A stretch of 58,515 bases of DNA, taken from a virus. Its lineage: Duplodnaviria > Caudoviricetes. The position numbers and the translations under genes are program-made. The notes beneath the pieces are model-generated. The model ran no database searches, was not told the DNA's origin, and worked only from the letters and a program-made list of their open reading frames with translations. Location of the stretch: positions 1 through 58,515 of IMG/VR virus record IMGVR_UViG_3300022208_000278. One strand, given 5' to 3'. Shown piece by piece: positions 1,432 through 56,152 of this stretch; the stretch's first letter is position 1, and each line of letters begins with the position of its first letter.

Positions 1432-1701
1432 ATGGAAATAAGTACACACAAAGCGGCAGAGCTTTTAAAGCTGATGACCGGAGAACTGAGACAAGATGAA
1501 TACGGAGAAACCGCATTCATGCTTGATGATGGACGCGCATTACTACTCACAACATCGGTACATATCGGGGTGCATACGTCATCGGCTCGGGTTGTATACC
1601 ATCACGTTATGGGATATATCGCGGAGGAATTCGAGCCGCTACCAAAAGCCCCTAACGTGGAGGTAAGCCGCAACCAACAGCGGCCACAAAATGACGAATA
1701 A
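1432..1701 (+). CDS. cassette hypothetical protein; C-terminus read into next attC
   Basis: ATG 15 nt after GTTAGGG; ends PNVEVSRNQQRPQNDE, encoded by the attC. Confidence 0.7.
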   Translation: MEISTHKAAELLKLMTGELRQDEYGETAFMLDDGRALLLTTSVHIGVHTSSARVVYHHVMGYIAEEFEPLPKAPNVEVSRNQQRPQNDE

Positions 1702-1990
1702 AACTACAACACAAAGCCCGCTGTTGGTTGTCGGACTTGACCGTAAAGTTAGGGGTGATGCGCAATTTGTTGAGGCCGTGAAAAAATGGAGGCTCGACAC
1801 TGGCGGAACGGAATTGCATCTCGTGCTAAATAACGGGAAGCCGCAGGCGGCATACCCGCGCAAGGTGCAAGCGGAAATATATGCGAGTGGATTTTCAAAA
1901 AACGAAGGCGTGAAAATCATTAGCGGAACTTTCACCCCTAACGTGCAAGTTCAGCGGGACGCCGCTTTTGGCGGCTCCGCTGGAACGTAG
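1691..1990 (+). CDS. cassette hypothetical protein with attC-encoded leader and tail
   Basis: ATG lies in loop of attC 1650-1754; stop lies in attC 1936-1998. Confidence 0.65.
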   Translation: MTNKTTTQSPLLVVGLDRKVRGDAQFVEAVKKWRLDTGGTELHLVLNNGKPQAAYPRKVQAEIYASGFSKNEGVKIISGTFTPNVQVQRDAAFGGSAGT

Positions 1991-2023
1991 GGTTGTGCGT
2001 CAACTTAACAACGGAGAACGAAA

Positions 2024-2263
2024 ATGAAAAAAGAATTTGGAGAAGCGCCGCTTACATGCCCAGAATGTGGCAGCCAAGAAGTTACAGTAAGCCACCTACA
2101 AAGGTTCATGGCTAACACTGGTGATCATTACTGCCACAGTGTAAAGACACAAGATGCGGACTCAGAATCGACATGTCTTGCTTGCCAATGGATTGGAAGG
2201 CGCGACCAGTTAATGACGCACAACGTAGAGCTAACCGGCGCTGCGCGCCACGAAAAGGAGTAA
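2024..2263 (+). CDS. cassette Zn-ribbon protein (CPECGS...CLAC)
   Basis: RBS acGGAGa; two CxxC motifs. Confidence 0.75.
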   Translation: MKKEFGEAPLTCPECGSQEVTVSHLQRFMANTGDHYCHSVKTQDADSESTCLACQWIGRRDQLMTHNVELTGAARHEKE

Positions 2264-2268
2264 GAGAT

Positions 2269-2577
2269 ATGAAGATCGAGAAACCACATGACTCAGCAAC
2301 GCCTACGGGCGCAGCGTCCGCGTTGAGCGCCGGGTTAGCCGTGCGGGTTGATCCTTTATACGTTTCCGTTCGCGGAAGCGAGGGGATCACCTTCAAGGAA
2401 GGCTGGAGCACTGGGAACATGACTGCGCCGGGAGTACAGATCGACACGGTTTGGTACGCAGAGCAGAGCAGAGCATTCGGCGGGTGCATTGACAGGGCCG
2501 AAGCTACGCAAATACGCGACTGGCTGAACTCGTGCATAGCCAAATGGGATCAGGAGAAGGTGAAGGCTAACGTCTGA
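2269..2577 (+). CDS. cassette hypothetical protein with attC-encoded leader
   Basis: AAGGAG-N8-ATG inside attC 2218-2340. Confidence 0.7.
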   Translation: MKIEKPHDSATPTGAASALSAGLAVRVDPLYVSVRGSEGITFKEGWSTGNMTAPGVQIDTVWYAEQSRAFGGCIDRAEATQIRDWLNSCIAKWDQEKVKANV

Positions 2578-2642
2578 CATAAGGGGCTGGCCGTAGGCCA
2601 GTCCCTCTTGGTGGAAAAGTTAGACCACATTGGAGACAGAAG

Positions 2643-2957
2643 ATGATGATAGATATTAGATGCCAGCGAGAACCGTGGAGAGACGGGATAGAGGTTGCGG
2701 TATTTCAGAAGCGAGAATTTGGAATGATGGTTGCCGAACCGTTGACGCTTAGAGAACTGAAGGACGGAGAAAACCTCAACGAGCCAACTATGCGCCTGCG
2801 GAACGAAGAGGCGCAACAATTGATAGATGAACTCTGGCGATGCGGACTGAGGCCCAGTGAAGGAACGGGCAGCGCCGGAAGTTTGGCGGCAACCGAAAAG
2901 CACTTGGCAGACATGCAGAAAATAGCGTTGGGGCTGCTTAAAGTTCATGGGGTCTAA
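2643..2957 (+). CDS. cassette phage hypothetical protein (...AQQLIDELWRCGLRPSEGTGSAGSLAATEKHLADM)
   Basis: GGAG RBS; TAA in GTCTAAC box. Confidence 0.8.
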   Translation: MMIDIRCQREPWRDGIEVAVFQKREFGMMVAEPLTLRELKDGENLNEPTMRLRNEEAQQLIDELWRCGLRPSEGTGSAGSLAATEKHLADMQKIALGLLKVHGV

Positions 2958-3002
2958 CGACAAAATTGAGCAGCCGCCCACTAAAACACTGGAGAAAACA
3001 CG

Positions 3003-3344
3003 ATGAACGATGAGACAAAACTGAATGACGAAAACCCCGCTGATGGGCGGTCTGACTCGAATGGAGGGTTAGGCGAAGTTGATTTTTATAATTATCTTCG
3101 AGAAGAAATAACTGATTTAGATAGCGCCAAAATGTTCATGTGGAAATGGGTGAACGAAATGGATCAGGAACTCCCCAAATTTGGCTCGATAAGCTCAAGA
3201 GCGCTGTGCGCCCACGTTAGCGCGATATTGGAAGGAAAGGAACAAGACGATTCAGGGGGTGATGGATATACTCAATACCTGAATACAAAGTATGGGCCTG
3301 AACTCTACTATTCAGCGTGGGGAGGGCGGCCTAACGTGATATAG
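3003..3344 (+). CDS. cassette hypothetical protein with attC-encoded leader; stop supplied by attI-like site
   Basis: GGAG + ATG inside attC 2952-3074; ends PNVI* in AACGTGATATAG. Confidence 0.7.
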   Translation: MNDETKLNDENPADGRSDSNGGLGEVDFYNYLREEITDLDSAKMFMWKWVNEMDQELPKFGSISSRALCAHVSAILEGKEQDDSGGDGYTQYLNTKYGPELYYSAWGGRPNVI

Positions 3345-3394
3345 ACACCTTTGCAGGTGTATAACACCCTGCGAAGGCAGTTTTACACCTAAAG
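3329..3394 (-). other. attI-like recombination site A
   Basis: - strand reads ...GGTGTAAAAC...GGTGTTATACACCTGCAAAGGTGTCTATATCACG|TTAGGC; near-identical copies at 6141-6206 and 40125-40190. Confidence 0.7.
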
Positions 3395-3406
3395 GAGAAA
3401 AATAAA

Positions 3407-3437
3407 TTGACAAAACATTAATTTGCTTTAACATAAT
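3407..3437 (+). promoter_or_regulatory. sigma70-like promoter upstream of Q-like gene
   Basis: TTGACA 3407-3412; TAACAT (16-nt spacer) or CATAAT. Confidence 0.45.
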
Positions 3438-3455
3438 GACCCACAACGAAGCGGA

Positions 3456-3989
3456 TTGGTTGGATACAATTTAAAAGATGGGGACGAATTGCGAATATCA
3501 ATTAAATCTTATTCACAGGCAGTAAACTCGTCGAATTTAATTGATAATACAATTAAGCAAGATACGGCGATATTGGCCGCTGTAGCTCTATCATCAGAGC
3601 TTGGGTCAATGCTATTCCGGGCTAAATATGCTGGAGACGAGCACAGCGTCATGATGCTCATGGATGCGTGGCGAATAAAAGTCTCTGCGGTGGCAAAAAA
3701 ACGCAGATTTTTGGAAAAGGCAAATGAGGTTGCTGATACGTCCTTGCGATATTGGCTGCAAGGCGTATGCCGAGTATGTGATGGTCGAACTGCACCGAAA
3801 ATTGATAACACACCAATGCTGGCCGATCTTGTGTGCCCAGCGTGCGGTGGGAGCGGGCAAGCCAGATTAAAGTGCGATGAGAGCATAAAAGATCATGTTC
3901 GTGATGCAATCGAAACGCTAAACCAAATGGAACGCGAGGCAGGCGGCGCAGCGATCAGGAAATTGTCGGATGATGTGCGTGCGGTATAA
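3456..3989 (+). CDS. antitermination protein Q-like (Zn finger CRVCDG...CPACGGSG); start may be TTG 3489
   Basis: Size and paired CxxCxG motifs typical of lambdoid Q antiterminators. Confidence 0.6.
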   Translation: MVGYNLKDGDELRISIKSYSQAVNSSNLIDNTIKQDTAILAAVALSSELGSMLFRAKYAGDEHSVMMLMDAWRIKVSAVAKKRRFLEKANEVADTSLRYWLQGVCRVCDGRTAPKIDNTPMLADLVCPACGGSGQARLKCDESIKDHVRDAIETLNQMEREAGGAAIRKLSDDVRAV

Positions 3990-3998
3990 ATTTACAAA

Positions 3999-4085
3999 GG
4001 AAGATGCCGCTAGGTTGGCTGGCAAGCGGTTTTGAAAACCGTGGTGTCCGAAAGGGTAAGGGTTCGACTCCTTCATCTTCCGCCA
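3999..4085 (+). tRNA. tRNA-Ser (anticodon TGA)
   Basis: Acceptor GGAAGAT/ATCTTCC, discriminator G + CCA, anticodon arm GCGGT-TTTGAAA-ACCGT, long variable arm, GGTTCGACTCC T-arm. Confidence 0.9.
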
Positions 4086-4126
4086 TTATTACCATTATTA
4101 AACGCCACAGGCAGCTTGACCGTAAA

Positions 4127-4265
4127 GTTAGGGGTGAAAGTGGTGGGGATTATTAAAGCGCATCCAAGCGCAAGTGTTCCGGGAGGCATACCGGGTAGTG
4201 CAGGCCGTTCGACACGGCGGCACGGCATGTTGGATATAGTAGTCCTCACCACTTTCGCCACTAAC
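4127..4265. ncRNA. ORF-less cassette, candidate structured RNA
   Basis: 23-bp terminal inverted complement (3 mismatches); internal GCCG-TTCGACA-CGGC T-loop-like hairpin; no RBS/ATG-led ORF filling the cassette. Confidence 0.35.
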
Positions 4266-4326
4266 GTAGAGCTAACCGGCAGGCCGCTTGGATGCCGTGT
4301 TAGGCACGACCAAACAGGAGAACGAA

Positions 4327-4635
4327 ATGAAATTGCTGGACATGGTTTCCGCTCTATCAAAAGCAGGTGTTGCTACAACAGTGCGCGGTGTAGGGGAAAC
4401 ATTGATAGCCGAGTTTGAGGATGGGTTTTATAAATCAGACGGAATGGCGCACCTACGCGAAGAAAACGGGCGACTGTATCTAAACGCCAGATATGGCGAG
4501 AAGAAAGAGGTTTTAGGGATTGATGACGTTATCAAATGCTCTAAAGAATGGCACGAATTCAGCCACGATAGATTCGATGGATGGGAAACACCGCCAGCAC
4601 ATTGGGCCGCGCTGTATGAGACGTTGAGTGCCTAA
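4327..4635 (+). CDS. cassette hypothetical protein
   Basis: AGGAG RBS; TAA in GCCTAAC box. Confidence 0.8.
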   Translation: MKLLDMVSALSKAGVATTVRGVGETLIAEFEDGFYKSDGMAHLREENGRLYLNARYGEKKEVLGIDDVIKCSKEWHEFSHDRFDGWETPPAHWAALYETLSA

Positions 4636-4658
4636 CGTGGAATTAAGCGGGCGCGAAA

Positions 4659-4868
4659 ATGACCTCTGATAAAACCAGCCACGCTGAACGCGCTCCGCTT
4701 GAATGTAGGGTTATGCCTCTGCCACTTGGAACGCAAACCCAATGGGGAAAAATTGAAATGGTCGGCATCACTGGAGGCGAACGGTACTACTGGATGCTCG
4801 ACAAACATAAATGCGTGTCCATGATTCCTGCCTTCATGGTAGAACAGGGGCATAACGACAAAGCTTAG
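4659..4868 (+). CDS. cassette hypothetical protein with attC-encoded leader
   Basis: ATG within attC 4630-4716. Confidence 0.65.
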   Translation: MTSDKTSHAERAPLECRVMPLPLGTQTQWGKIEMVGITGGERYYWMLDKHKCVSMIPAFMVEQGHNDKA

Positions 4869-4938
4869 GGGCGACGCCGTAGGCGGCGTCCCACTAGAGC
4901 GGCGGGTTGTGCGCCGCCGTTCAACGGAGATAAACACG

Positions 4939-5226
4939 ATGAAGCGATACCGAACACCGAAGGCGAAACCCGGCGAACTGCTGGTGAAGTACGGGCAGGA
5001 ACATGGAGACCGTGACCTGTACTTTTGCTACGGGGCTGGCGGGGCAACAAGACGAGATTCAAATGTCGTGATGATGGCTTTCAATAGCGAACTGAAACTT
5101 GGGAATGGGAATTCACTCGTTAAAGAACTAGAGGCTCGTGGATACGACATCACAACGCTGAAATTCACGGTGCAATTGAAGGCGCACAACGTGAAGCTAA
5201 GAGACAGGCCGACCGAAAAACTTTAA
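4939..5226 (+). CDS. cassette phage hypothetical protein (...SLVKELEARGYDITTLKFTV)
   Basis: acGGAGa RBS; reads into next attC. Confidence 0.75.
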   Translation: MKRYRTPKAKPGELLVKYGQEHGDRDLYFCYGAGGATRRDSNVVMMAFNSELKLGNGNSLVKELEARGYDITTLKFTVQLKAHNVKLRDRPTEKL

Positions 5227-5240
5227 AGGAGAAATGAACC

Positions 5241-5498
5241 ATGAACACACGCAACTTTGGAAAGAAATCACTTATCGGCCTGTCCCTCTTGAGCGTAGGG
5301 TTAGTGGGTTGCGAACTTGCATCACCGTGGCAAGGTGCAGGTGCTCTTTACATTTACGATCATGGTGTTTCGCGTTGTGTAAATGTTAAAGAGGTAGCTT
5401 TCAATGCGTCTCGATCTACAGATTATATTGATCTTGATGGTATCCAATATTTGGCGCGTGAACCTGTGGCATATTACGCTGGTGAGAAATGCAAATGA
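5241..5498 (+). CDS. cassette lipoprotein; signal peptide encoded by attC
   Basis: MNTRNFGKK-SLIGLSLLSVG-LVGC lipobox; residues 1-22 lie in attC 5184-5306. Confidence 0.65.
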   Translation: MNTRNFGKKSLIGLSLLSVGLVGCELASPWQGAGALYIYDHGVSRCVNVKEVAFNASRSTDYIDLDGIQYLAREPVAYYAGEKCK

Positions 5499-5553
5499 AT
5501 ACCCCTAACGGGGAGCTAAGGGGCTGCGCGCATCACGAAACTTTGAAGGAGCG

Positions 5554-5901
5554 ATGAGCATGGAATCAGCGAACGAAACTGGAAAGAACCCCGCTGGCGC
5601 GCAGTCCGGTGGAGCCGAAGGCGGAACGAACTTGAGCGGATGGTTAGCCGCCGAGAAGCAGCAGGAAGCGGAATGGGACAATTTTTGGCGCGAGCGCGAA
5701 CTAGAAGAACGAGAGCTTTTTGAGCAGAGCTACCGCCGCCACAAACTGAACCGGCATCATGGCGGAACAGGAGAATATGAGCATCGCTACGTCGAGCATT
5801 GTTGGCATGGCTGGATGGATAGGGCATTCGTGATCTACACAGAGGCGGCTAACGTGCAAGTTCAGCGGGACGCCGCTTTTGGCGGCTCCGCTGGAACGTA
5901 G
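5554..5901 (+). CDS. cassette hypothetical protein with attC leader and tail
   Basis: AAGGAG + ATG inside attC 5503-5649; tail identical to that of 1691-1990. Confidence 0.7.
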   Translation: MSMESANETGKNPAGAQSGGAEGGTNLSGWLAAEKQQEAEWDNFWRERELEERELFEQSYRRHKLNRHHGGTGEYEHRYVEHCWHGWMDRAFVIYTEAANVQVQRDAAFGGSAGT

Positions 5902-5934
5902 GGTTGTGCGTCAATCAAACTATGGAGAATAAAA

Positions 5935-6156
5935 ATGTGCGTAATAGTCATGGTCGGAGATATTGAGTGTAGTACAAAAGCAGAACTGAGAAATGCTATC
6001 GGAATTGAACCGGAGCGCAGAAAGAAAGATTACAAAACATTTGAGGACGGAGATTGTCTTTGTCCATGCGATCTTGAGAAAACAGCAAAGCTCGCAAATA
6101 TGACTTTGAGCGGCGATTCTTGGGATGTGCAGATTTTGACGCACAACGTGATATAG
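5935..6156 (+). CDS. cassette hypothetical protein (DCLCPCD)
   Basis: GGAG RBS; ends HNVI* in attI-like site. Confidence 0.75.
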   Translation: MCVIVMVGDIECSTKAELRNAIGIEPERRKKDYKTFEDGDCLCPCDLEKTAKLANMTLSGDSWDVQILTHNVI

Positions 6157-6206
6157 GCACATTTGCAGGTGTATAACACCCAACGAAGGCAGTTTTACAC
6201 CTAAAG
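6141..6206 (-). other. attI-like recombination site B
   Basis: AACGTGATATAGGCACATTTGCAGGTGTATAACACCC...TTTTACACCTAAAG, near-identical to sites A and C. Confidence 0.7.
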
Positions 6207-8977: not shown

Positions 8978-11299
8978 CTATAATTTATTAAATAGCGCGG
9001 ATGCCATCAGTGATGGGGGCACCTCAGCCTGCGAATACTCTTGGATGTAATGCCAACTAGTTTGATTAGACTGAGAGTATGGGACTAGATATATTCTGTT
9101 CTGCGTTGGAGAGTAAACACCACCACGATACCCGTTCGTAACTACAGTTGCTCCGTGAGTGTAAGCTACGACTGTGCCAGTTGCGCAATCAATGTAGTGC
9201 CAACTCGTTTGATTAGACTGTGCTAATGGGACTAGATATATTCTGTTCTGTGTTGGAGAGTAAACACCACCAATATACCCGTTCGTAACTACAGTTGCTC
9301 CGTGGGTATAAGCTACGACTGTGCCAGTTGCGCAATCAATGTAGTGCCAACTCGTTTGATTAGACTGTGCTAATGGGACTAGATATATTCTGTTCTGAAT
9401 CGGGGAATAAACACCACCATAATACCCGGTCGCAACTACAGTTGCTCCGTGAGTGTAAGCTACGACTGTGCCAGTTGCGCAATCAATGTAGTGCCAACTC
9501 GTTTGATTAGACTGAGAGTATGGGACTAGATATATTCTGTTCTGCGTTGGAGAGTAAACACCACCATAATACCCGGACGCAATTACAGTTGCTCCGTGGG
9601 TATAAGCTACGACTGTGCCAGTTGCGCAATCAATGTAGTGCCAACTCGTTTGATTAGACTGAGAGTATGGGACTAGATATATTCTGTTCTGTGTTGGAGA
9701 GTAAACACCACCAGCATACCCGGTCGCAACTACAGTTGCTCCGTGAGTGTAAGCTACGACTGTGCCAGTTGCGCAATCAATGTAGTGCCAACTCGTCTGG
9801 TTAGACTGAAAGTATGGGACTAGATATATTCTGTTCTGTGTCGGGGAATAAACACCACCAGCATACCCGGACGTAATTACAGTTGCTCCGTGGGTATAAG
9901 CTACGACTGTGCCAGTTGTGCAATCAATGTAGTGCCAACTCGTCTGGTTAGACTGTGCTAATGGGACTAGATATATTCTGTTCTGTGTTGGAGAGTAAAC
10001 ACCACCAATATACCCGTTCGCAACTACAGTTGCTCCGTTCAAATACGAGCCTACGCCGAATCCTATATTTATATTTTTCGAGTGTATCCGTGATAGGTAT
10101 GAGACAAGGTTGGGTATACTTATCGTATCCATCCTGACGGACGGGAATGGCGCGGTTAGTATGTTTGTTGCGCTGGTGAGCGTTTTATTGGTTAGCGCCT
10201 CGGCTCCCGTGGGAGTTGTTAGGTCAGTCCCCAGCGTGAGTTCGGCAGCCATACCACCCGCATCAAACCCTGCGACCTTAAGCGCTGTTCCGGTATGCCC
10301 AGAGCCAGACCATGCCAGATCGGTCAAGTTGGGGTGGCTTGTCGGTGCCAAGGCGGTAGGTGCGGAGCTTCCGATAACAGGGCGCAAATCGGAGATGGTC
10401 GAGGGCGAAGTAGCGCCATTCAAGAATGTGATTTTTGCAATCACCATCCCGTGTTCCATGTATTCCTCTGGACGATTTGTCGGGGTGGCTTCAGCCAGCG
10501 CTTCGGCTTCCGTTGCGTATTGAGCGCGTCCGTATTGAACTACGACATCCCCCAAGTAACCCTGTATCACGTAATGATTGCTGTACCACCCAACGGTCGT
10601 TGCTGTGAGCACGCCAGCATTGTCGTATTGGGTATTGTCCCATTGAGTTTGAGCGGCTACATAGGTGTATGTGCCTGTCCCATAAATAGCTGTGAACGTG
10701 CCACCAGCGTTGGAATCGAACAGGCTTATATGTTCCTGATCCATGCTTCTGGACACTTCAATCGTCCCAGCGGTTATGGCTATTTTCCTCGATGGTGCTG
10801 ATGGGTCATAAGTCACCAGCCCCGCAGAAACTCTATCCCCGATTGTTCTCTGCGCCCATCCCTGCGCACGATTTACAAAGTCTCCGATTGGCCGTGCATC
10901 CGGGTGAATCTTGAGCACCCCTCCCCGGTTGTGAACCTCTCCCAAATAGATCAGGTCGTACCCGTTCGAGGTGTCTGTCGGGTTGAATGCGATGTTCGGT
11001 GCGCCAGAATTCCAACTCCCTATCAAGTACCTTGTGGTGTCAGTAGGAATCGCCACGCCAGTCAATCCGGCGACAGTATTCTCGTAGTAAATCGAGGATG
11101 TTGCCGTAGATCCTGAGCGTATGATGAATTCTCCAACAGCGACGTTTACCGTCGCGCCGCCAGCATCGGTAATCCCGAAGCCCTCGATCCAGCCTGACGA
11201 GCTTAAATCTTTCCACAGGCTGCGCAGGGTCGCGGTGGTTCCGGTTGAGTGGACTAGCAGCGTGCCATCAGACCGACCTCCATCTCTCCATGCTGACAT
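8978..11299 (-). CDS. tail fibre / receptor-binding protein with 7x49-aa repeat domain
   Basis: Gly/Thr-rich beta structure, LTNKTL fibre motif, C-terminal tandem repeats. Confidence 0.7.
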   Translation of the reverse strand: MSAWRDGGRSDGTLLVHSTGTTATLRSLWKDLSSSGWIEGFGITDAGGATVNVAVGEFIIRSGSTATSSIYYENTVAGLTGVAIPTDTTRYLIGSWNSGAPNIAFNPTDTSNGYDLIYLGEVHNRGGVLKIHPDARPIGDFVNRAQGWAQRTIGDRVSAGLVTYDPSAPSRKIAITAGTIEVSRSMDQEHISLFDSNAGGTFTAIYGTGTYTYVAAQTQWDNTQYDNAGVLTATTVGWYSNHYVIQGYLGDVVVQYGRAQYATEAEALAEATPTNRPEEYMEHGMVIAKITFLNGATSPSTISDLRPVIGSSAPTALAPTSHPNLTDLAWSGSGHTGTALKVAGFDAGGMAAELTLGTDLTTPTGAEALTNKTLTSATNILTAPFPSVRMDTISIPNLVSYLSRIHSKNINIGFGVGSYLNGATVVANGYIGGVYSPTQNRIYLVPLAQSNQTSWHYIDCTTGTVVAYTHGATVITSGYAGGVYSPTQNRIYLVPYFQSNQTSWHYIDCATGTVVAYTHGATVVATGYAGGVYSPTQNRIYLVPYSQSNQTSWHYIDCATGTVVAYTHGATVIASGYYGGVYSPTQNRIYLVPYSQSNQTSWHYIDCATGTVVAYTHGATVVATGYYGGVYSPIQNRIYLVPLAQSNQTSWHYIDCATGTVVAYTHGATVVTNGYIGGVYSPTQNRIYLVPLAQSNQTSWHYIDCATGTVVAYTHGATVVTNGYRGGVYSPTQNRIYLVPYSQSNQTSWHYIQEYSQAEVPPSLMASALFNKL
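9044..10036 (-). repeat. 7 tandem 147-bp coding repeats
   Basis: GATV...GGVYSPTQNRIYLVP..QSNQTSWHYIDC.TGTVVAYTH, period 147 bp. Confidence 0.95.
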
Positions 11300-45823: not shown

Positions 45824-45864
45824 GATGTTCTCCTGTTGTTTATTGATTATTCCCACTGGTTCTC

Positions 45865-45894
45865 ATAATACAGGCGGTTAATTGAGCGTGTCAA
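45865..45894 (-). promoter_or_regulatory. sigma70 promoter pointing toward array C
   Basis: TTGACA-18nt-TATTAT. Confidence 0.55.
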
Positions 45895-45902
45895 GGATTA
45901 TT

Positions 45903-46511
45903 TCATTTATTTTTCATCTTCAACTCTTTCAGTTTTTGCTTATATTCAACAATCATTTCCCTGATGCGCTCTGTGCTGATGTGTGCCTCAGTCTTTGCTA
46001 GTGCCTCTAGGCGTATCACGGTCGCCTCGCCGTAGCGTTGAATCAATCCATCTCGGTATCCAGCATGATTACCTTTAAGCCATCTATTACAGTACTTTTT
46101 CTGTGCATTCACGTTCTCTTCGTCCCAGCGTGTCGCGTAGTGTCTGCGGCTGATGTAGTGCCCTGCCTCATATTTTCCACCCACCCATCCAACGCTTAGA
46201 TGCTTGCTACAACAGATACAAGGTTTGTCCTTGTCCCTGTATCGAACGTATGCCCCGAATACGCGGTCGAGTTCGTTGATGTAGTCATCGCGCCCCTTCA
46301 ACTTGTCCTTTGCGGCTTTCAGTTCCTTTCGCTCCCGCACCTCCCGCTTGACCTTAGATTTTTCAGCCGCCTTAGTCGCATAGGCCACCTTGCACTCGAA
46401 GTCATCACACACAGGCTGAATTGATCGCACCGGCTGGAATTTCTTACGACAGATTCGGCAAGGCTTCTGCTTGAACTTTACTTCGGATGGCTTCTGCTTG
46501 GGTATTTGCAT
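45903..46511 (-). CDS. ninG: NinG/Rap Holliday junction endonuclease
   Basis: YVRYRDKDKPCICC; AGHYISR...ATRWDEENVNAQ...CN. Confidence 0.9.
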   Translation of the reverse strand: MQIPKQKPSEVKFKQKPCRICRKKFQPVRSIQPVCDDFECKVAYATKAAEKSKVKREVRERKELKAAKDKLKGRDDYINELDRVFGAYVRYRDKDKPCICCSKHLSVGWVGGKYEAGHYISRRHYATRWDEENVNAQKKYCNRWLKGNHAGYRDGLIQRYGEATVIRLEALAKTEAHISTERIREMIVEYKQKLKELKMKNK

Positions 46512-46663
46512 TGCGTATCGCCTTTCACGTACCGGCCAATTTCCTCGGGACTACGTGCAGCCGCACAAGAGCAATATCCAAACTTAGCCATATCCTGATC
46601 TCCTTTGGATGTGCCGATGTGAGCATGGATGCAGTCTCGACAGATGATTTTTATTTCCATCAT
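46478..46663 (-). CDS. small Cys-rich protein
   Basis: ICRDCIH...GYCSC; overlaps ninG start. Confidence 0.5.
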   Translation of the reverse strand: MMEIKIICRDCIHAHIGTSKGDQDMAKFGYCSCAAARSPEEIGRYVKGDTQCKYPSRSHPK

Positions 46664-46684
46664 TTTTCAGGTGTGTTTTATGAA

Positions 46685-46720
46685 TTATACACCGATAAAG
46701 GGGTCTATTCTGCGTTAGGC
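46685..46720 (+). other. attI-like recombination site D (diverged)
   Basis: TTATACACC-gat-AAAGG-g-GTCTAT-tctgc-G|TTAGGC aligns without gaps to site A TTATACACC-tgc-AAAGG-t-GTCTAT-atcac-G|TTAGGC. Confidence 0.65.
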
Positions 46721-46909
46721 ACTGGTGATAATCCTCTCGATGTCGCTGGGTTTTAACTGCATTTTCCATTTCTCTTTCCACTCTTCATGCCACTTTATTA
46801 TTTTACCTGTTACGCTATTCCTTATCACAACAGAAACGCACCCGCTAATTTTGTAATGGTACAAAACACCATTTACAACTATCTCTTTCCGTCCTTTTTT
46901 GGGCAGCAT
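46715..46909 (-). CDS. cassette hypothetical protein
   Basis: RBS GGAGG comes from the attC spacer; ATG 1 nt after R box; TAA in attI R box. Confidence 0.7.
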   Translation of the reverse strand: MLPKKGRKEIVVNGVLYHYKISGCVSVVIRNSVTGKIIKWHEEWKEKWKMQLKPSDIERIITSA

Positions 46910-46924
46910 TGCCTAACCCTCCAT

Positions 46925-47188
46925 TCAACCGCGACCGCTTCGCGGCGCGTTAATTATTGCGTTGGGCGGCGTTAAGTGATTACGCAACTTAACTTTGAAC
47001 GCCTCAAATCCATTAGCAAATTTGTTATCATCGCCACCTATCGCCACGCCTAGACCGTAGAGCACATCATTTATCAGCGTTTCATCCGTGTAATTTTCAT
47101 AGAACGGTTGGTCGCTATAGGTACGCATGTAGTTTTGCAGGTATTTAACAGCTTCTTTAATCCGCTTTTGATGTTTTTTAGTTGCCAT
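46925..47188 (-). CDS. cassette hypothetical protein
   Basis: acGGAGa RBS; tail read into attC. Confidence 0.75.
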   Translation of the reverse strand: MATKKHQKRIKEAVKYLQNYMRTYSDQPFYENYTDETLINDVLYGLGVAIGGDDNKFANGFEAFKVKLRNHLTPPNAIINAPRSGRG

Positions 47189-47309
47189 AGTATTCTCCGT
47201 TGAAAAAGCCGCCCAACCCTACGTTCGAGCGCACGGGCAACGGCGGGACAGGTTCTCTAGTTTTGCTCATGGTTTCTCCTCGCGCCGTTCCCCGGCGCTC
47301 AACTTTGCG

Positions 47310-48329
47310 TTATGCCCCATACATCACCATTTGCGCGCTGGCACTTTCTACCCGCTGCCGCGCCATTTCAAAGTTTTTCGGGCATTTCTCAACCCCGATA
47401 AATCGCCTCCCTGTTTCATGGCAGGCATGGCCTAAACTACCCCCACCCATGAACGGATCAAAAACCAAATCCCCCGCCCTTGTGCTGGAGTAAAGGATGT
47501 GCCGCAAAAGTGCCTGCGGCTTCTCGCATGGGTGCTTCCCCGCATAAGCCATTACAGGCTCAAAGTCCCAAACATCACCCCATTGGTCTTTTGCAGTCAC
47601 ATTGAACGGCCTGCGCAGCTCTTCGTACTCGCGGCGCAGCTCTTCGTACTCGCGGCGCAGTTCTTCATACTCGCGCGTCAAAAACCCTGATCCGAGTGTG
47701 TGTTGCATTGACTCATAATCAGCAGCAGAGATTAGGTTCTTTCCAAGCTCCCAGTTAAATATGTTGGCGTTCGCGCTGTCTTCGTTTTTGTAGCCCACAA
47801 GTTTCTTCGCTACATCGCGGCGGCTGATTCCTGCGCGTTCGCGCTCAAGCTGGATATAGCGGCCTAGTGGCGCGTACACCTCTTTATGCAAAGCCTTCGA
47901 TGCGTCACCGTATTGATCGCCCCGCTGCTCCGCAAATATAACCCGCTCAGTCACCGCAATCCAAGAGCGCAGGGCTTCTTTCTCGGCCTTCTGCGCCCAT
48001 CCAACAACATCGCGTCCTTTACCGCCCTTGCGCCACACGATTGAACTCAGCACGTTAAAACGCTTCCCGATCTCGCATTCAACGCGCGCCGCCATTTGTG
48101 GCGAGGCGAAAAAGTACAGGCTCCCGTTCGGCTTGAGGATGCGCTGGAACTGTTCGCAAAGCTTGCCAACCCACTCAATAAAATGGTTCGCGTCATCCCA
48201 TTGGTTATCCCAATCTTCGCCCTTCACACGGAAGTATGGGGGGTCGGTTATGATTGCACTTATGCTATGAGATTCCATATCCTTCATTACAGCCATACAA
48301 TCCGCATTGTAGAGTGCGACACTATTCAT
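47310..48329 (-). CDS. DNA amino-methyltransferase (N6A/N4C, beta class) with HTH-like insertion
   Basis: DPPY motif; HPCEKP; VFDPFMGGGS SAM-binding motif. Confidence 0.9.
   Translation of the reverse strand: MNSVALYNADCMAVMKDMESHSISAIITDPPYFRVKGEDWDNQWDDANHFIEWVGKLCEQFQRILKPNGSLYFFASPQMAARVECEIGKRFNVLSSIVWRKGGKGRDVVGWAQKAEKEALRSWIAVTERVIFAEQRGDQYGDASKALHKEVYAPLGRYIQLERERAGISRRDVAKKLVGYKNEDSANANIFNWELGKNLISAADYESMQHTLGSGFLTREYEELRREYEELRREYEELRRPFNVTAKDQWGDVWDFEPVMAYAGKHPCEKPQALLRHILYSSTRAGDLVFDPFMGGGSLGHACHETGRRFIGVEKCPKNFEMARQRVESASAQMVMYGA
47613..47675 (-). repeat. 3x21-bp coding repeat (REYEELR)
   Basis: Direct inspection. Confidence 0.9.
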
Positions 48330-51023: not shown

Positions 51024-51060
51024 GATAGGCACCTTTGCCGGGGCCTATATCATGTTAGGC
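51024..51060 (+). other. attI-like recombination site E (core only)
   Basis: GCCTATATCATGTT identical to core of site C. Confidence 0.65.
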
Positions 51061-51061
51061 C

Positions 51062-51625
51062 TCATGATTGCTTCTCCCGTGCTTTCAGCATTTCATCGGC
51101 TTGCCGGTAGGCAAATTGAGCGCGCAATTCGTATGTGTCAAAGTCGGTGTCTTCGCAAGCGACGATTGACTGCATCGCCTTTGCCGCGAAGTAATCGCGC
51201 AAGCTCATCCCCTCGCTTGGCGCTCCGCCACCGCCACTGAACGTATATGAATGCCCACTGTTAGGGAACGCCGGGCCGCCGTTGTTGGTTTCGCTCATGT
51301 TCATTTCCTTTCCGGGCCTGAGGCCCAACCCTGCATTCGAGCGCGACGGCCCAAAAGCGGGCCGCGCCTCAATTTGAATGTTAGAGCGCTCTTTGAGTCT
51401 GCGCACCCAATACGCCACGGCTTTGTTCCACATAGCCACGTCCCGCTCGATCCCTCTGTCGTCGCCAGTATCCTCCGCTGCCTCGCATGCCTTCACGCAC
51501 GCCTCACGCTCTGCATCAACGGCGCGGCGCGCAACTTCCTTGGCATAGTCGCCGTACAGGCCATCCGACAGCCCGCCCATTTGCCATTCTCGCTCAACGT
51601 CGTCACATATCTTTTGCAAGTCCAT
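51062..51625 (-). CDS. two cassette ORFs fused in frame through an attC; distal part (start 51304) is the GMSLRDYFAAKAMQ phage family
   Basis: ORF crosses attC 51323-51386 without a stop; internal AAGGA + ATG. Confidence 0.7.
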   Translation of the reverse strand: MDLQKICDDVEREWQMGGLSDGLYGDYAKEVARRAVDAEREACVKACEAAEDTGDDRGIERDVAMWNKAVAYWVRRLKERSNIQIEARPAFGPSRSNAGLGLRPGKEMNMSETNNGGPAFPNSGHSYTFSGGGGAPSEGMSLRDYFAAKAMQSIVACEDTDFDTYELRAQFAYRQADEMLKAREKQS

Positions 51626-51691
51626 ATCGTTCTCCGTAGTTACCAGCGCTCTAACCCATCATTCCACCGGACAGCTTCGCTGCCGGTGAAT

Positions 51692-52054
51692 TCAGGCGTT
51701 AGCCGCCGCAAATGGGATCAGCTTCAAATCGTAGCCATCCACATGCCCTGATTCCCAATCGTGGGTCTCGTTGCACACAATTACCTCGTAAATCCCATCC
51801 CCGCACTCGTCGAGGTTGAGTATGCTATTCACAGCATCCGCCGCGCCGATTGCACCAGCATCTTCCTCAAGCACATTAAATCCAGTGCATTTCCTGCGCA
51901 AAAATGTGATGCTTTTCTTTGTATGCAGCCCGCGCCTGTCTGCCCATATTGTTGTGGTAATTTTAACAACGCATACGTTTTTTGGAGCGTCGGCGGCTAA
52001 CCCTGCGGTCAAGTCCGACAAACAAAAGCGGGGTTGAGTTTGTGTGTTATTCAT
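51692..52054 (-). CDS. cassette hypothetical protein with attC-encoded leader
   Basis: ATG in attC 51995-52098. Confidence 0.7.
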   Translation of the reverse strand: MNNTQTQPRFCLSDLTAGLAADAPKNVCVVKITTTIWADRRGLHTKKSITFLRRKCTGFNVLEEDAGAIGAADAVNSILNLDECGDGIYEVIVCNETHDWESGHVDGYDLKLIPFAAANA

Positions 52055-52313
52055 AGTTTTGTAGCCGCTTTTGTTTGCGGCTTACCTCCATGTTAGCCGC
52101 CTGTATGCTTTCCACTCTCTTAATTGCGCTGTCCAAGTTGACTATAGGGGTTGACCACTCATCGCAACCGTATGTTGATTTCCCACTAAACCCAGTGTGC
52201 ATTAGCATTTCGCGGATGTCGCGCAATCTCCAAAGAACGTCGGCTAACCCGTCATTCAAGCGGGGATGCCCCTCTGCGCGGCTTTTATCATTCAGTTCAG
52301 TTTCATCATTCAT
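52047..52313 (-). CDS. cassette hypothetical protein with attC leader and tail
   Basis: Leader MNDETELND resembles that of 3003-3344. Confidence 0.65.
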   Translation of the reverse strand: MNDETELNDKSRAEGHPRLNDGLADVLWRLRDIREMLMHTGFSGKSTYGCDEWSTPIVNLDSAIKRVESIQAANMEVSRKQKRLQNYE

Positions 52314-52320
52314 TTCTTTG

Positions 52321-52581
52321 TTATCCTTTCTCTATGGGGCAGCCCCTTACTTCGGAGTTGGTGGTCTTATTGCACTCCGGGCATGGAAGCCCTCTCTTTG
52401 CCGCTGTCACGCTCGGCAGTGAAATCCATCCTGATTCGTGCCCGCACTTGGCGCACACCATTGCCACAACCTGTTCGCCATCTTCGTGTTCGCCACAATT
52501 GCCATTCGCGCAGTCAACAACGTGCATCATCCATTCGCGCTGCTTTCTCGGCTTCTCGAACATTTCCAGTGTGCGTGCCAT
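52321..52581 (-). CDS. Zn-ribbon protein at distal junction of array E
   Basis: CAKCGHESGW...CPECN; GGAG RBS; tail read into attC. Confidence 0.7.
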   Translation of the reverse strand: MARTLEMFEKPRKQREWMMHVVDCANGNCGEHEDGEQVVAMVCAKCGHESGWISLPSVTAAKRGLPCPECNKTTNSEVRGCPIEKG

Positions 52582-53669: not shown

Positions 53670-53865
53670 TTTTCTGTCATGTTTTTATAGGGTGATTTAA
53701 TCATAATCGCCAATAAGTCTGGCATTTGGCAGGGACTCGACACCCTGAATACACAAGCCCTAGTGTTCCAGATGCCAGTCTTATTGGTGATCCTAAAAAG
53801 GAGGAATGCCGTCGCGCTAAAGCGCGCCCCTCTTGAATGATGGGTTAGAGAACAGGAGAAACAAC

Positions 53866-54057
53866 GTGGCGAAAAAAGAGATAAAGATCATTGAGGGAGA
53901 TGTAAGGCACGATGTGTTTGGTAGTTGGAGCGACTGCTCTCCCGGCCTATACATTGACACCGATATGGTGGAGTCCATTTTCAATTCATACAAAGGCAGG
54001 AGGGTTAGAGTGACAATCGAAGTAATAGAACCTGTTCTGGACGATGGTGATGAGTGA
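53866..54057 (+). CDS. cassette hypothetical protein
   Basis: AGGAG + GTG start. Confidence 0.65.
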   Translation: MAKKEIKIIEGDVRHDVFGSWSDCSPGLYIDTDMVESIFNSYKGRRVRVTIEVIEPVLDDGDE

Positions 54058-54159
54058 TGTTCTCTAACGCAAAGGTAACAGGCTCGCCTTCGGCGAGTCC
54101 AGCGGAGTGAAACGGAGCGGTGTTGACCGTTAGGTTATGCTGTTTTATTGGAGACGAAG

Positions 54160-54624
54160 ATGAAAGCTACTGTATGGACTTCTTACGGAAGAAACAACGA
54201 AAAGCCCAAGTGTATTTTTAATGGAGAAATAAAGTCAGTGCCAAGAGATGGCGAGTTAATCGTAGCCCGTGATGGATTTTGCTCGGAGCGAGTAATCGAG
54301 GTTACGCACGATCTTGTAACCGGAGAGGTCGAAATAAAAATTGCAGGCGGAGACCCAGATAGCGAATACGGAGATTGCAGAGTTAGCAGCCTACTCTTAA
54401 CGAAGCGCGGTACTTTGAAAGGAAACATCATGCAACCTCACCAGCAACGTGTAGTAGATGAAAAAACAGAACTCGACGTGAAGGCCCACGCACTTAGCCA
54501 ATTTATTGGTCATAGCCCGATATTTGAAACGCTCGATGCAGCGGAACAAGAACGGTTGAAGGAGCAGAACGACGTTATGTGGCAATACTCTGAGATTCTC
54601 GGAGCGAGAATTGCTGCATTTTAA
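54160..54624 (+). CDS. fusion of two cassette ORFs; distal part (ATG 54430, MQPHQQRVVDEKTEL...) is crAss001_48-like
   Basis: attC remnant at 54372-54388 inside the ORF; internal AAGGA + ATG. Confidence 0.7.
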   Translation: MKATVWTSYGRNNEKPKCIFNGEIKSVPRDGELIVARDGFCSERVIEVTHDLVTGEVEIKIAGGDPDSEYGDCRVSSLLLTKRGTLKGNIMQPHQQRVVDEKTELDVKAHALSQFIGHSPIFETLDAAEQERLKEQNDVMWQYSEILGARIAAF

Positions 54625-54769
54625 ATAGTGAAGCTTCCTGTCAGCTCGAAGGCGGCTAACAAGTAGTGAATGGGCTGCGGCGCTGACACTTTGAACAAGA
54701 AAGAAACACTTATTACCGCAGTCCCGCTTGCACGTAGGGTTGGGCGGCTTTTTCAACGGAGATATAGCT

Positions 54770-55006
54770 ATGAACACAATACCAGAAAAACATCTTGAGT
54801 TTTGCAGGGCGGTTGCCGCGCTTGCTGCTGACGCAGGAATAAACCAAGCATCTCTAACCTACCACCCCGGAATTCATGACGAATGGAGAGATGAGATACG
54901 GATGCAATGGGAAAGCGGCAGGCACGGCGAAGATTCTAGGCGAGTGTACATAACCAGCAATGTTCAAGTTAGAACAGAACTCAAGCCGCCCAACATTTCA
55001 AATTGA
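54770..55006 (+). CDS. cassette hypothetical protein
   Basis: acGGAGa RBS. Confidence 0.7.
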   Translation: MNTIPEKHLEFCRAVAALAADAGINQASLTYHPGIHDEWRDEIRMQWESGRHGEDSRRVYITSNVQVRTELKPPNISN

Positions 55007-55071
55007 GGCGCGGCGCGCTGTTGCGCCGTCGCTCTCGAATGCAGAGTTAGGCTCTGCGAAAGGAGATTGAA

Positions 55072-55227
55072 ATGGCATACCAATACAAAGAGGCAATGAA
55101 ACGGCATAGACGCACCGCATTTCAAAGGCGCGATGTTAAATCTGAAATTACAGTTTTCAGGATAGTTGAGCAAAAAGGATGCTGTGGGAGTTTTATTCCA
55201 AGGTACAAAACGAAGCCTAACGCCTGA
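55072..55227 (+). CDS. cassette small basic protein, 51 aa (MAYQYKEAMKRHRR...KPNA), not in ORF track
   Basis: AAGGAG RBS; manual translation. Confidence 0.6.
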   Translation: MAYQYKEAMKRHRRTAFQRRDVKSEITVFRIVEQKGCCGSFIPRYKTKPNA

Positions 55228-55297
55228 ATTTTGGGGCTGCCGAAGGCAGTCCCGCAACAATGACGGGTTATGCCCCGCCTTAACTACGGAGATTGCC

Positions 55298-55498
55298 ATG
55301 ATTGAAACTGCACCAGAAGGAATGACTAAAGAGCTTTGGCTGAAAAGATGCTCTGCACGATTGAGAGCAAAGATACCGGACATGGATATTTCCGAGAGCG
55401 ATGGAATTGCGGAGGCGTGCTTTGAAAATCTGGACAACGACCTCACAGAACACCCTGAGGACGCGGCAGACGAGGAACTGAGCTGCTGGTCTGAATGA
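55298..55498 (+). CDS. cassette acidic protein (...PEDAADEELSCW)
   Basis: acGGAGa RBS. Confidence 0.7.
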   Translation: MIETAPEGMTKELWLKRCSARLRAKIPDMDISESDGIAEACFENLDNDLTEHPEDAADEELSCWSE

Positions 55499-55592
55499 AG
55501 GGGCATAACGTAAAGGTAAGGGGCTGACGCGCTTTTGCGGCGGTCCCGCTTCACCGCCGGGTTGGGCGGCTTTTTACTACGGAGCAAAAAAC

Positions 55593-55856
55593 ATGGCAAA
55601 GAAATATCCTGCAATAGGTTGTAAAAAAGCGCCACGGAATGCTGGTGGATTGCCATGCATTATTTGCGGAGTGCCGACAACTGGAAAAGTTGACATAGAA
55701 GTAAGCTGGTTTCGTGGCGACGACAAACAGGTGCGTGTCTGCAAAACACACCAGACGAAACACGATACCGAAATACTGGCGGCATACGAGGCGGCTAACG
55801 CTGACATGAGGGGCTGCGCCACCGCCGAGCCGAACAACGAAGCGAGGAAGATATGA
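55593..55856 (+). CDS. cassette Zn-binding protein (CIICG...SWFRGDD...VCKTH)
   Basis: acGGAG RBS; tail read into attC. Confidence 0.7.
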   Translation: MAKKYPAIGCKKAPRNAGGLPCIICGVPTTGKVDIEVSWFRGDDKQVRVCKTHQTKHDTEILAAYEAANADMRGCATAEPNNEARKI

Positions 55857-56152
55857 CAACACAACAAACAAACAACGAAGCTCTGGCGCAGTCCCGCGCC
55901 AAAGGCGCAAACTCGATGGATGGGTTAGGGGCGGCAATGGAATGCAGGTCAATAGAAACGGCCCCGAGAGTCGGGACGCCTATCATCCTTCTCTACTTCG
56001 ATGGCGGGAGAGTATGTTGGGTTCGGGACGGGAAATTCGTTCCGCCTATCGGGTGGTATTCGATCAACGGCACTGGCGGGCTACATCCTACCCATTGGAT
56101 GCCGATGCCAGAAGCCCCTAACGACCATGCTCAGCCGACCGTAACCGCCTGA
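55853..56152 (+). CDS. cassette DUF551-like protein with attC-encoded leader
   Basis: SIETAP...PTHWMPMPEAP motif. Confidence 0.75.
   Translation: MTTQQTNNEALAQSRAKGANSMDGLGAAMECRSIETAPRVGTPIILLYFDGGRVCWVRDGKFVPPIGWYSINGTGGLHPTHWMPMPEAPNDHAQPTVTA

Follow-up and report, generated by a model that had tools for sequence, protein, structure and literature searches.

Integron cassettes are usually viewed as an open reading frame (ORF) with an attC site for recombination behind it, and as being expressed from a promoter beside the integrase. Arrays of attC sites, some of them with integrases, are also known from phages, with methyltransferase genes among their cassettes, and passages of the paper describing them state that the phage sites are recombined by IntI1 and that their bottom strands are more active than their top strands (Qi et al. 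2023; PMC9892861). According to parts of a review, ribosomes are held up by attC hairpins in mRNA, an obstacle that short ORFs located in attI1 (ORF-11) or within attC ease by termination–reinitiation (Hanau-Bercot and Jacquier; PMC8876359); translation of an upstream cassette is further described as governing downstream expression (PMC11511950). In the reverse integrons of Treponema denticola, as that source presents them, intI is flipped, the array lies downstream of intI, and the cassettes run from ORF to attC with the stop codon in R'' (PMC7691350). Phage attC arrays, attC-internal helper ORFs and co-directional 'reverse' integrons are, then, already known. Here we analyse the attC-like repeats of IMG/VR record IMGVR_UViG_3300022208_000278 (Duplodnaviria; Caudoviricetes), the entire 58,515 bases of which we call the window, and which is classed as a provirus with an estimated completeness of 77%.

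The small genes of the window are grouped into five blocks, and at nearly every intergenic junction stands an imperfect hairpin with ..AAC and GTT.. boxes; we curated 43 such attC-like sites, 47–147 nt long, with both boxes in all 43. The integron-integrase model TIGR02249 had no match anywhere in the window, and the arrays, which have no intI and attI beside them as complete integrons do, are clusters of attC sites lacking integron-integrases (CALINs). Taken as a whole, we think it probable that they consist of integrase-less attC cassettes of inverted polarity, with gene starts placed in the attC loops.

attC identity and gene polarity

A covariance model (R1) was built from 18 short window sites aligned in gene direction, with an imposed layout of an R helix, a 5–7 nt spacer, an L helix with three bulges on its 3' arm, and then the loop; two preceding hairpin scans had been too noisy, with the strands indistinguishable, and the covariance model was used instead. 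In the alignment 86% of cells were paired, against 71% when shuffled and 34–44% when the partners were slid, and compensatory (two-sided) changes occurred in 11 of 19 pairs. AAC and GTT of the core boxes were invariant in the 18 sites and the box helix was 80% paired; the L helix was 89.8% paired, with compensatory changes in nine of its 12 pairs, and columns 49, 53 and 57 (T, G/T and G) were bulged on the 3' arm of the gene strand, with the central spacer unpaired. The structural features of attC are present: RYYYAAC ... GTTRRRY boxes, an imperfect L''/L' repeat, extrahelical bases on one strand and a variable terminal structure. R1 found 33 of the window sites, all on the local gene strand and at 13–72 bits; the other ten, all of 103–147 nt, were placed by eye and by a box-and-arm scan because R1 penalises long loops. 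Some sites form a sub-family whose hairpin is asymmetric, owing to a conserved insertion of ~22 nt (..CCGGTGGAGCSGAAGGCGGAACGAA..) that is confined to the 3' arm (Table 1).

R1 also matched the attC of aadA1 in plasmid R100 (39.6 bits, E = 6e-9) and, at bacterial intI loci, 149 sites of up to 73 bits in Betaproteobacteria and Gammaproteobacteria, the genera with such sites beside intI being Nitrosomonas, Methylobacter, Gallionella, Thiobacillus and Glaciimonas, among others. Because of these matches, the window repeats are genuine attC sites, of the freshwater and soil proteobacterial kind. That they should instead be generic phage intergenic hairpins, such as terminators or regulatory stem-loops for modular shuffling, seems to us scarcely credible: the absence of an integrase, the position of the sites between small accessory genes, where such elements also lie, and the lack of any Rfam match in the window at the gathering threshold would fit this explanation, but it would account neither for the recovery by R1 of the aadA1 attC and of the sites beside bacterial intI, nor for relatives in which IntI and attI stand next to such arrays, nor for hairpins that are not followed by T-runs.

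In canonical attC sites the extrahelical bases lie on the bottom strand, which is the strand recombined. A bottom-strand preference of attC recombination is also stated in PMC9892861. With R1, window sites scored 50–72 bits on the gene strand and never more than 10.7 on the opposite one, and its match in R100 was antisense to aadA1 (39.6 bits, against 4.8 on the other strand). Because R1 hits the R100 strand antisense to aadA1, phage genes are encoded on the attC bottom strand, and crossover belongs to the box in front of the hairpin. The canonical polarity, in which the coding strand is the attC top strand and attC lies 3' of the ORF, was not found in these arrays.

The position of the sites relative to the integrase could be read from viral relatives. 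One contig, L002, with a methylase 68% identical to that of the window, carries on one strand and in this order its cassettes, the methylase, GCATAA/C, a short non-hairpin attI stretch, intI and a lambda-type portal; its integrase scored 464.8 bits with TIGR02249 (cut-off 265), and its attI motif is absent from the window. Scanning with this integrase yielded 68 viral contigs from IMG/VR (L014–L081), 32–100% identical over the best aligned segment, some with only partial integrase relatives and most with attC arrays upstream on the same strand; passages of PMC9892861 give 21 phages with integron parts, a far smaller number. In the 68 viral loci 107 of 108 R1 hits were on the intI strand, all 107 of them upstream of intI, and in 42 bacterial loci (those with enough upstream flank out of 80 returned) this held for 149 of 149. 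The attC-to-intI geometry of the viral relatives is the ordinary one, and R100 agrees.

Gene orientation was then called by asking which strand has, close to a site, a Shine–Dalgarno sequence (SD) and a start codon with an ORF behind them that takes up 60% or more of the interval. Among 73 viral intervals 48 were called on the bottom strand only, none on the top only, two on both and 23 on neither, whereas the 101 bacterial intervals gave three, 20, one and 77, respectively; aadA1 was called on the top strand. Bottom-strand calls came from 16 viral contigs, none of which had a top-strand-only call. A comparison of the longest ORF per strand (38 versus 33 of 73 intervals) was uninformative at 60–70% GC and was replaced by this test. 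The cassette genes of the phage lineage are turned round with respect to those of ordinary integrons.

Start signals and leaders in the attC loops

An initial annotation of the window had listed 14 positions at which an attC loop carries a start codon, usually with a ribosome-binding site, in frame with the downstream ORF. All 14 start codons do lie within attC-like sites, and each is in frame with an ORF, of 68–120 aa; 13 of them are ATG and one (42459) is a GTG with an in-frame ATG at 42456. An SD core (GGAG, GAGG or AGGA) stands 4–10 nt upstream of nine (2269, 3003, 5241, 5554/5560, 41350, 42459/42456, 43879, 52313 and 55853), and is missing at that distance from 1691, 4659, 43555, 44148 and 52054. 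We found two more in-frame loop starts (41604 and 44376) and two loop ORFs separate from the gene (43548, 26 codons; 47270, 30 codons), and at the boundary cases 46909 and 56215 the site supplies the SD as had been described.

The interiors of the 22 sites of at least 74 nt were shuffled 1000 times, with an ORF threshold of at least 45 aa. An SD with ATG occurred inside 14 of the 22 (shuffled mean 3.6, maximum 9) and opened such an ORF in 11 (mean 0.84, maximum 5), and any ATG opened one in 16 (mean 5.4, maximum 13); not one of the 1000 shuffles reached the observed ORF counts. Reverse-complemented interiors of the same sites held no SD with ATG, and the 21 shorter sites (<74 nt) held no loop starts. 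Chance as the origin of the loop starts was ruled out by this shuffling (0/1000). Short sites are followed by ..AACNACGGAGA..N6-8..ATG, mostly 17–27 nt after the box, a motif that the long sites lack; the loops of the latter are long because they contain the gene start. In structure predictions the mean unpaired probability was 0.69 for the loop start region against 0.30 for the arms, and the sites were predicted to fold as hairpins in mRNA at -18 to -44 kcal/mol.

From a loop start the 3' arm and box read as a leader of 20–35 residues. The annotation had attributed the endings that these leaders share among unrelated proteins to translated site boxes, and this was borne out for the downstream box: in 12 of 16 in-frame leaders it reads xGG-TTx-Gxx (GLG, GLA, GFG and similar), in three as GTT-xxx (VRG, VM), and the third frame holds TAG. 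The leader sequence is not conserved. In sites 1650–1754 and 52098–51995, which are 82–84% identical, the arms are read in different frames, and of the pair 5184–5306 and 43605–43483 (92–93% identical) the former is joined to its gene by a fusion from ATG 5241, the latter probably by coupling via its 26-codon ORF.

Homologues outside cassettes, relatives of the 2269 and 44376 proteins, lack the leader. A search with the 2269 protein gave four database matches, one of them the window's own; a homologue 75% identical has a different 22-residue leader, still open and ending in GLA, and the two others (81 and 80 aa) have none. Neither a single-protein search of viral contigs nor an alignment search of metagenome contigs returned a close relative of this protein, but the alignment search of viral contigs gave two loci, and one viral-contig homologue, which has no attC closer than 1.5 kb, begins behind AAGGAGG and 11 residues ahead of the conserved VRGSE motif. 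In L029 and L030 the 44376 homologue lacks an attC, and its N-terminal 35 residues are unrelated. As judged from these alignments, the leaders are not part of the conserved protein cores. Pfam and PHROGs gave no match for seven of ten leader-bearing proteins tested, and weak matches only for the other three.

It has to be asked whether the loop ATGs are protein starts at all, or whether the real starts lie at or after the downstream box, with the loop ORFs as relics or short helpers. Four of the 17 loop starts have no SD (1691, 4659, 44148 and 52054), in-frame alternatives near the box exist for 2269, 4659, 43555, 43879 and 55853 (GTG 2341, without SD, ATG 4713, ATG 43471, GTG 43807 and ATG 55937), leaderless homologues occur, and 43548 and 47270 clearly open separate upstream ORFs. 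Against this stand the 11 cases of SD and ATG with a long in-frame ORF where shuffling gave 0.84, the absence from long sites of the post-hairpin ACGGAGA-N6-8-ATG of short sites, and at least nine of the 17 sites having no SD-bearing alternative within 60 nt of the box. In the 44376 protein the first Cys conserved with the L029/L030 homologue comes two codons after the box with no start codon between, and in the 41350 protein a CxxC begins five codons beyond the downstream box, the intervening stretch having neither ATG nor GTG, while the 3' arm and box of this site hold two SD-less in-frame TTG codons; in both, the conserved Cys precedes any SD-bearing alternative start. In the 5241 leader, MNTRNFGKKSLIGLSLLSVGLVGC, a basic head precedes a hydrophobic stretch, which the 3' arm encodes, and a lipobox LVGC (read by eye); it is a probable lipoprotein signal peptide. 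These last three cases argue that translation must start inside the site, and we regard starts at or beyond the box as an unlikely general explanation. Loop starts as the starts in use remain our preferred interpretation, on the basis of sequence signals.

Of 40 window ORFs that precede a site, eight stop at the TAA in the crossover box, nine before the box and 23 beyond it, in the hairpin of the next cassette. Six of these 23 end at +7, at the common spacer TGA, and three at +13; the remaining stops lie 25–58 nt in, often in the loop, with the exception of a 187-aa reading from 51625 that ends 319 nt past the box, through the whole next cassette. The consensus of crossover box and spacer, CTAACGCCTGA, which forms the 5' end of most sites (for example 562–574, 2565–2577 and 55215–55227), has stops in two of three frames, TAA in the box and TGA at +7, and only the third frame continues into the arm. 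In relatives, one upstream ORF ends in ..MVRPNA and a stop in L042 and in ..MVRPNVKVRG.. with 34 more residues in L041, and another ends in ..GVPANAELRGEE and a stop in L029 and in ..GVPANVRVERRACKRSRG and a stop in L032. The site of the neighbouring cassette thus gives the preceding gene its stop codon and C-terminal tail, a mirror image of the adaptor idea discussed below, because the tails of the same upstream ORF vary with the downstream cassette.

In nine of the 17 loop-start sites the upstream stop falls close to the loop ATG, between -11 and +17 nt. This group includes two ATGA overlaps (55853 and 43879) and both SD-less starts 1691 and 52054. A separate short ORF with its own SD and ATG, ending near the next start, is found in two of the 17 (43548 and 47270), the other 15 being in-frame fusions.

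Unit of mobility

Near-identical viral contigs differ by whole cassettes, and four natural gains or losses were identified: two distinguish L041 from L042, one L033 from L034, and one L029 from L032. In every event identity ends right after the ..AAC box before a hairpin and resumes at the ..AAC box before the next hairpin, the extra piece in all four being hairpin, GTT box, ORF and ..RYYYAA. At the integrase end L029 and L032 are different up to ..AA/C and then identical through CTTAAATTCGACGACACC, the attI, which is also present in L002. The first cassette of L029, one of the variable ones, has GAGG-ATG in its loop. The cassette is attC first and then ORF, and the loop start codon is the cassette's own. 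Because both are on the same side of the crossover, a loop start and its ORF travel together, and there is therefore no basis for a start lent to start-less DNA.

Such lending had been the interpretation of the initial annotation, in which the recombination site also served as an expression adaptor able to activate start-less DNA. The loop starts with ribosome-binding sites, the leaders, the shared endings and leaderless homologues stood; the portable adaptor was not supported. In its strict form, the hairpin of an upstream cassette would donate SD, ATG and leader to start-less DNA recombined downstream. Some patterns look like this: the same attC-plus-start module is joined to unrelated ORF bodies, sometimes in different frames, in the two window pairs described above and in 44176–44086 with L002 7423–7515 and 2218–2340 with L023 1818–1940, similarity stopping at the downstream box in each pair, and methylase genes that are 84% identical have an upstream box and 5' untranslated region (UTR) conserved at 83% but a hairpin interior at 56%. 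The strand asymmetry, however, puts the crossover at the upstream box, in agreement with the array, attI and intI geometry of L002 and the 68 viral loci; the genes are encoded on the bottom strand; and all four gains or losses carry hairpin and downstream ORF together, one of them as the loop-start cassette of L029. For integrase-mediated bottom-strand recombination the strict adaptor is already contradicted, and overall we hold it to be very improbable. The L''/R'' labels that the annotation gave to the boxes are ambiguous; if the downstream arm was meant, its polarity was right and only its inference fails.

The methylase pattern is equally explained by neutral divergence of structure-constrained sequence. 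Hairpin–gene linkage could not be traced through the sites flanking methylase homologues, where at 84% gene identity neither hairpin interior is conserved, a pattern that would fit neutral divergence as well as exchange. These homologues are preceded by GTTGTACA, of which the reverse complement, TGTACAAC, directly follows the stop codon, and share a conserved 5' UTR, ATCTTGCACGCGAGGA; both R-stem halves stay with the methylase gene even where the hairpin interiors differ.

The adaptor might survive at an evolutionary scale. In a broader scenario, which we put forward tentatively and think rather unlikely, a phage integron lineage with its own polarity-inverted cassette pool (at least 68 IMG/VR contigs with an IntI relative) would have recruited the attC loop as a translation start region, and rare downstream-box crossovers, by top-strand recombination or at cassette genesis, would join attC-plus-start modules to new ORF bodies. 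If true, such crossovers would explain how one module came to be fused, in different frames, to unrelated proteins, and how one leader became a lipoprotein signal.

The explanation we favour, that of inverted cassettes with gene starts in their loops, would work as follows. The prophage carries five integrase-less attC arrays with every gene on the attC bottom strand. Its mobile cassette reads, in gene direction, C, hairpin, box GTTRRRY, ORF and ...RYYYAA, with integrase crossover in the box preceding the hairpin, which often holds the TAA of the previous gene. Because attC lies at the 5' end of each message segment, only the stretch behind the hairpin and the hairpin apex would be left for the start signals. 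About half of the cassettes have a short hairpin with SD and ATG 17–27 nt after it; in 17 the loop, enlarged to 30–90 nt, holds SD and ATG and often the stop of the upstream gene too. A ribosome would start in the unpaired apex and melt the 3' arm while making a leader from arm and box, translation then continuing in frame into the protein (15 sites) or stopping at the true start, to which it would be coupled (two sites); ribosomes finishing the upstream gene in the same loop would melt the 5' arm and hand over. What the analysis shows is the attC identity of the sites, their polarity, the unit that moves, a surplus of start signals over chance and leaders that are not conserved; we infer that the loop starts are used, and that they help translation to begin, or to be coupled, on a polycistronic mRNA that is strongly folded.

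Several points weigh against this explanation, besides the SD-less starts and the in-frame alternatives given above. Ten of the 43 sites (103–147 nt) rest on placement by eye and by the box-and-arm scan. The window has no integrase, and the cassette gains and losses were seen in IntI-bearing relatives rather than in this phage. Near-duplicate contigs (L040/L041/L042 and L052/L053) inflate the viral orientation count. The 23 of 40 ORFs that cross into the next cassette mean that cassettes are not fully self-contained, and the leaderless 2269 homologues imply that the leader is dispensable for the fold.

Array layout and comparison with known systems

The arrays, loop-start sites and associated elements are listed in Table 1. 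Directly after the last crossover box, all five arrays have the invariant junction AAC followed by RTGATATAGRCMC; three of these array-terminal copies extend for ~80 nt with hairpins, a T-run and ACACCT repeats. The array-terminal sequence, RTGATATAGGCMC, occupies the position where relatives have attI, yet is unlike their attI, and may be either a site resembling attI or a terminator and operator common to the arrays. The segment that separates arrays A and B (3413–4137) holds a promoter of sigma-70-like appearance, TTGACA ... CATAAT (read by eye), a 177-aa ORF (3456–3989), tRNA-Ser(UGA) at 3999–4085, the one tRNA-Ser in the window, and then a truncated attC 3' end; as a whole it looks like an insertion into a cassette array.

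Proteins encoded in the window include a large terminase, a portal of the SU10 type, a DnaB helicase, an N6/N4 DNA methylase, NinG, a YqaJ-like exonuclease and, as the last ORF, an SSB-like protein, named by eye. The structural module contains a single 3221-aa ORF (11937–21602, minus strand), and in the structural region a 773-aa ORF (8978–11299, minus strand) includes ~7 tandem copies, ~92% identical, of a 147-nt unit at 9045–10038. Megablast of window positions 1–6200 against a phage collection gave no match, and tblastn against the fetched loci gave matches for only six of the 53 cassette proteins of the window.

Table 1. Coordinates of arrays, loop-start sites and associated elements in the window or, where a contig is named, in viral relatives
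Feature	Coordinates	Strand	Length (nt)	Description
Array A	1–3335	+		All genes +; R1 covariance matches plus manual curation; sites 214–277, 562–631, 893–950, 1116–1177, 1343–1423, 1650–1754, 1936–1998, 2218–2340, 2565–2625, 2952–3074
Array B	4110–6147	+		Starts with truncated 3' attC remnant 4115–4137, identical to 1736–1758; sites 4259–4305, 4630–4716, 4850–4912, 5184–5306, 5503–5649, 5847–5909
Array C	40184–47315	-		16 sites, 47315–47211 down to 40457–40396; all genes -
Array C, site-free multi-gene segment	44612–46715			Includes NinG homologue
Array D	51054–52363	-		Sites 52363–52242, 52098–51995, 51704–51649, 51386–51323
Array E	53795–56425	+		Starts with 5'-degenerate site ending at 53851; other sites 54062–54140, 54654–54745, 54988–55052, 55215–55273, 55503–55567, 55793–55930, 56116–56218
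Array-terminal element	3336–3413	+		Directly after last crossover box
Array-terminal element, further copies	6148–6206; 40183–40106; 51053–51040; 56426–56438	+; -; -; +		
Loop-start site	1650–1754	+	105	ATG 1691, no SD; upstream stop at 1701, 11-nt overlap; leader MTNKTTTQSPLLVVGLDRKVRG fused to 99-aa ORF
Loop-start site	2218–2340	+	123	Upstream stop 2263 in loop; AGGAG 8 nt before ATG 2269; 102-aa ORF; conserved core from ~residue 28
Loop-start site	2952–3074	+	123	GGAG 8 nt before ATG 3003; 113-aa ORF
Loop-start site	4630–4716	+	87	ATG 4659, no SD; in-frame ATG 4713 inside box GTTATGC; weak case
Loop-start site	5184–5306	+	123	AGGAG 9 nt before ATG 5241; leader MNTRNFGKKSLIGLSLLSVGLVGC
Loop-start site	5503–5649	+	147	AGGAG 8 nt before ATG 5560; second ATG 5554; ORF 113–115 aa
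Loop-start site	55793–55930	+	138	Upstream TGA overlaps ATG 55853 (ATGA); 99-aa ORF with weak DUF551 match; alternative ATG 55937
Loop-start site	41285–41409	-	125	GGAG 9 nt before ATG 41350; 68-aa ORF
Loop-start site	41584–41657	-	74	AGGA 7 nt before ATG 41604; 66-aa ORF; upstream ORF ends 41594
Loop-start site	42385–42507	-	123	AGGA 7 nt before ATG 42456 (GTG 42459); ORF 88–89 aa
Loop-start site	43483–43605	-	123	92–93% identical to 5184–5306; ATG 43555 in frame with 99-aa ORF, SD 2 nt away; ATG 43548 with SD spacing 9, 26-codon ORF, its TGA overlapping ATG 43471 (ATGA)
Loop-start site	43808–43930	-	123	Upstream TGA overlaps ATG 43879 (ATGA); AGGAG 10 nt upstream; 90-aa ORF
Loop-start site	44086–44176	-	91	ATG 44148, no SD; 90-aa ORF
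Homologue of site 44086–44176	L002 7423–7515			Same loop ATG, unrelated ORF body
Loop-start site	44311–44424	-	114	GGAG 9 nt before ATG 44376; 70-aa ORF
Loop-start site	47211–47315	-	105	AGGAG 5 nt before ATG 47270; out-of-frame 30-codon ORF, end 10 nt past real start ATG 47188
Loop-start site	51995–52098	-	104	82–84% identical to 1650–1754, different frame; ATG 52054, no SD; 120-aa ORF; upstream ORF ends 52047, 8-nt overlap
Loop-start site	52242–52363	-	122	AGGA 10 nt before ATG 52313; 88-aa ORF; upstream end 52321 in loop
Boundary case	46911–46967	-	57	Spacer GGAGG is SD for ATG 46909, 2 nt after box
Boundary case	56116–56218	+	103	3' arm GGAG is SD for ATG 56215, inside box GTTATGA
Sub-family with ~22-nt insertion	1343–1423; 5599–5649; 42202–42119; 54062–54140; L002 7039–7122			
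Methylase flank elements	L003 8945–8978; L004 3239–3273; L006 9980–10001			Also after each methylase stop

Among elements of comparable appearance, the promoter-early stem-loop (PeSL) cassettes of T4-type phages are repeated structured intergenic elements with expression signals that accompany small accessory genes in plastic regions. PeSL elements carry promoters and shuffle by homologous recombination, unlike the attC sites described here, which in relatives are tied to an integron integrase.

Compared with the phage CALINs of PMC9892861, which in the passages of that paper have few sites per phage, the window has 43 sites in five arrays, with every array gene on the bottom strand and 17 starts within loops; those passages are silent on how genes are oriented relative to the attC strand and on start codons within sites. 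In the library of papers searched, as represented by titles and abstract openings, we found no lineage with all cassette ORFs on the attC bottom strand and read towards attI and intI, although the supplementary tables of PMC9892861 may list orientations, and no start codons or N-terminal coding sequence in an attC loop. With the Treponema reverse integrons, as described in PMC7691350, the arrays have co-directional transcription alone in common: here the array is upstream of intI and attC precedes each ORF, so that it is the ORFs that are flipped and not intI.

A close parallel is with ORF-11 and ORF-18 of attI1, at least as portrayed in the sources cited at the outset, where a start region in the recombination site recruits ribosomes and couples them to the next gene, and where the peptide sequence matters little. 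In their layout, sites 43548 and 47270 fit the ORF-11 pattern exactly. The 15 remaining sites differ from it in being fused in frame as the N-terminus of the gene, and the site is the cassette's own rather than attI or an upstream attC. If confirmed, the system would offer a natural test bed for the encounter of ribosomes with attC hairpins, and would mean that protein N-termini, a probable signal peptide among them, can be encoded by a recombination site; software for gene calling or integron annotation that assumes canonical polarity would misplace the boundaries of phage cassettes, and the phage cassette pool would be separate from the bacterial pool despite their common attC sites.

With canonical integrons, such as that of aadA1 in Tn21/R100 and the betaproteobacterial chromosomal ones, the phage arrays share the R and L boxes, spacer, extrahelical bases and variable loop of their sites, the geometry of attC relative to intI, and ORF ends that overlap the site. 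In canonical integrons the ORF is on the top strand, attC is at its 3' end and the array is transcribed away from intI, whereas here the ORF is on the bottom strand with attC 5' of it, and transcription of the array runs towards attI and intI. A phage-associated lineage uses the same recombination sites and related integrases with its genes turned round, with the consequence that arrays are read towards the integrase and new cassettes join the end of the operon. The recombination hairpin falls in the 5' part of each message, where the site must coexist with translation initiation; the sequence suggests that the phage cassettes achieve this through start signals in the loop and translation of the arm.

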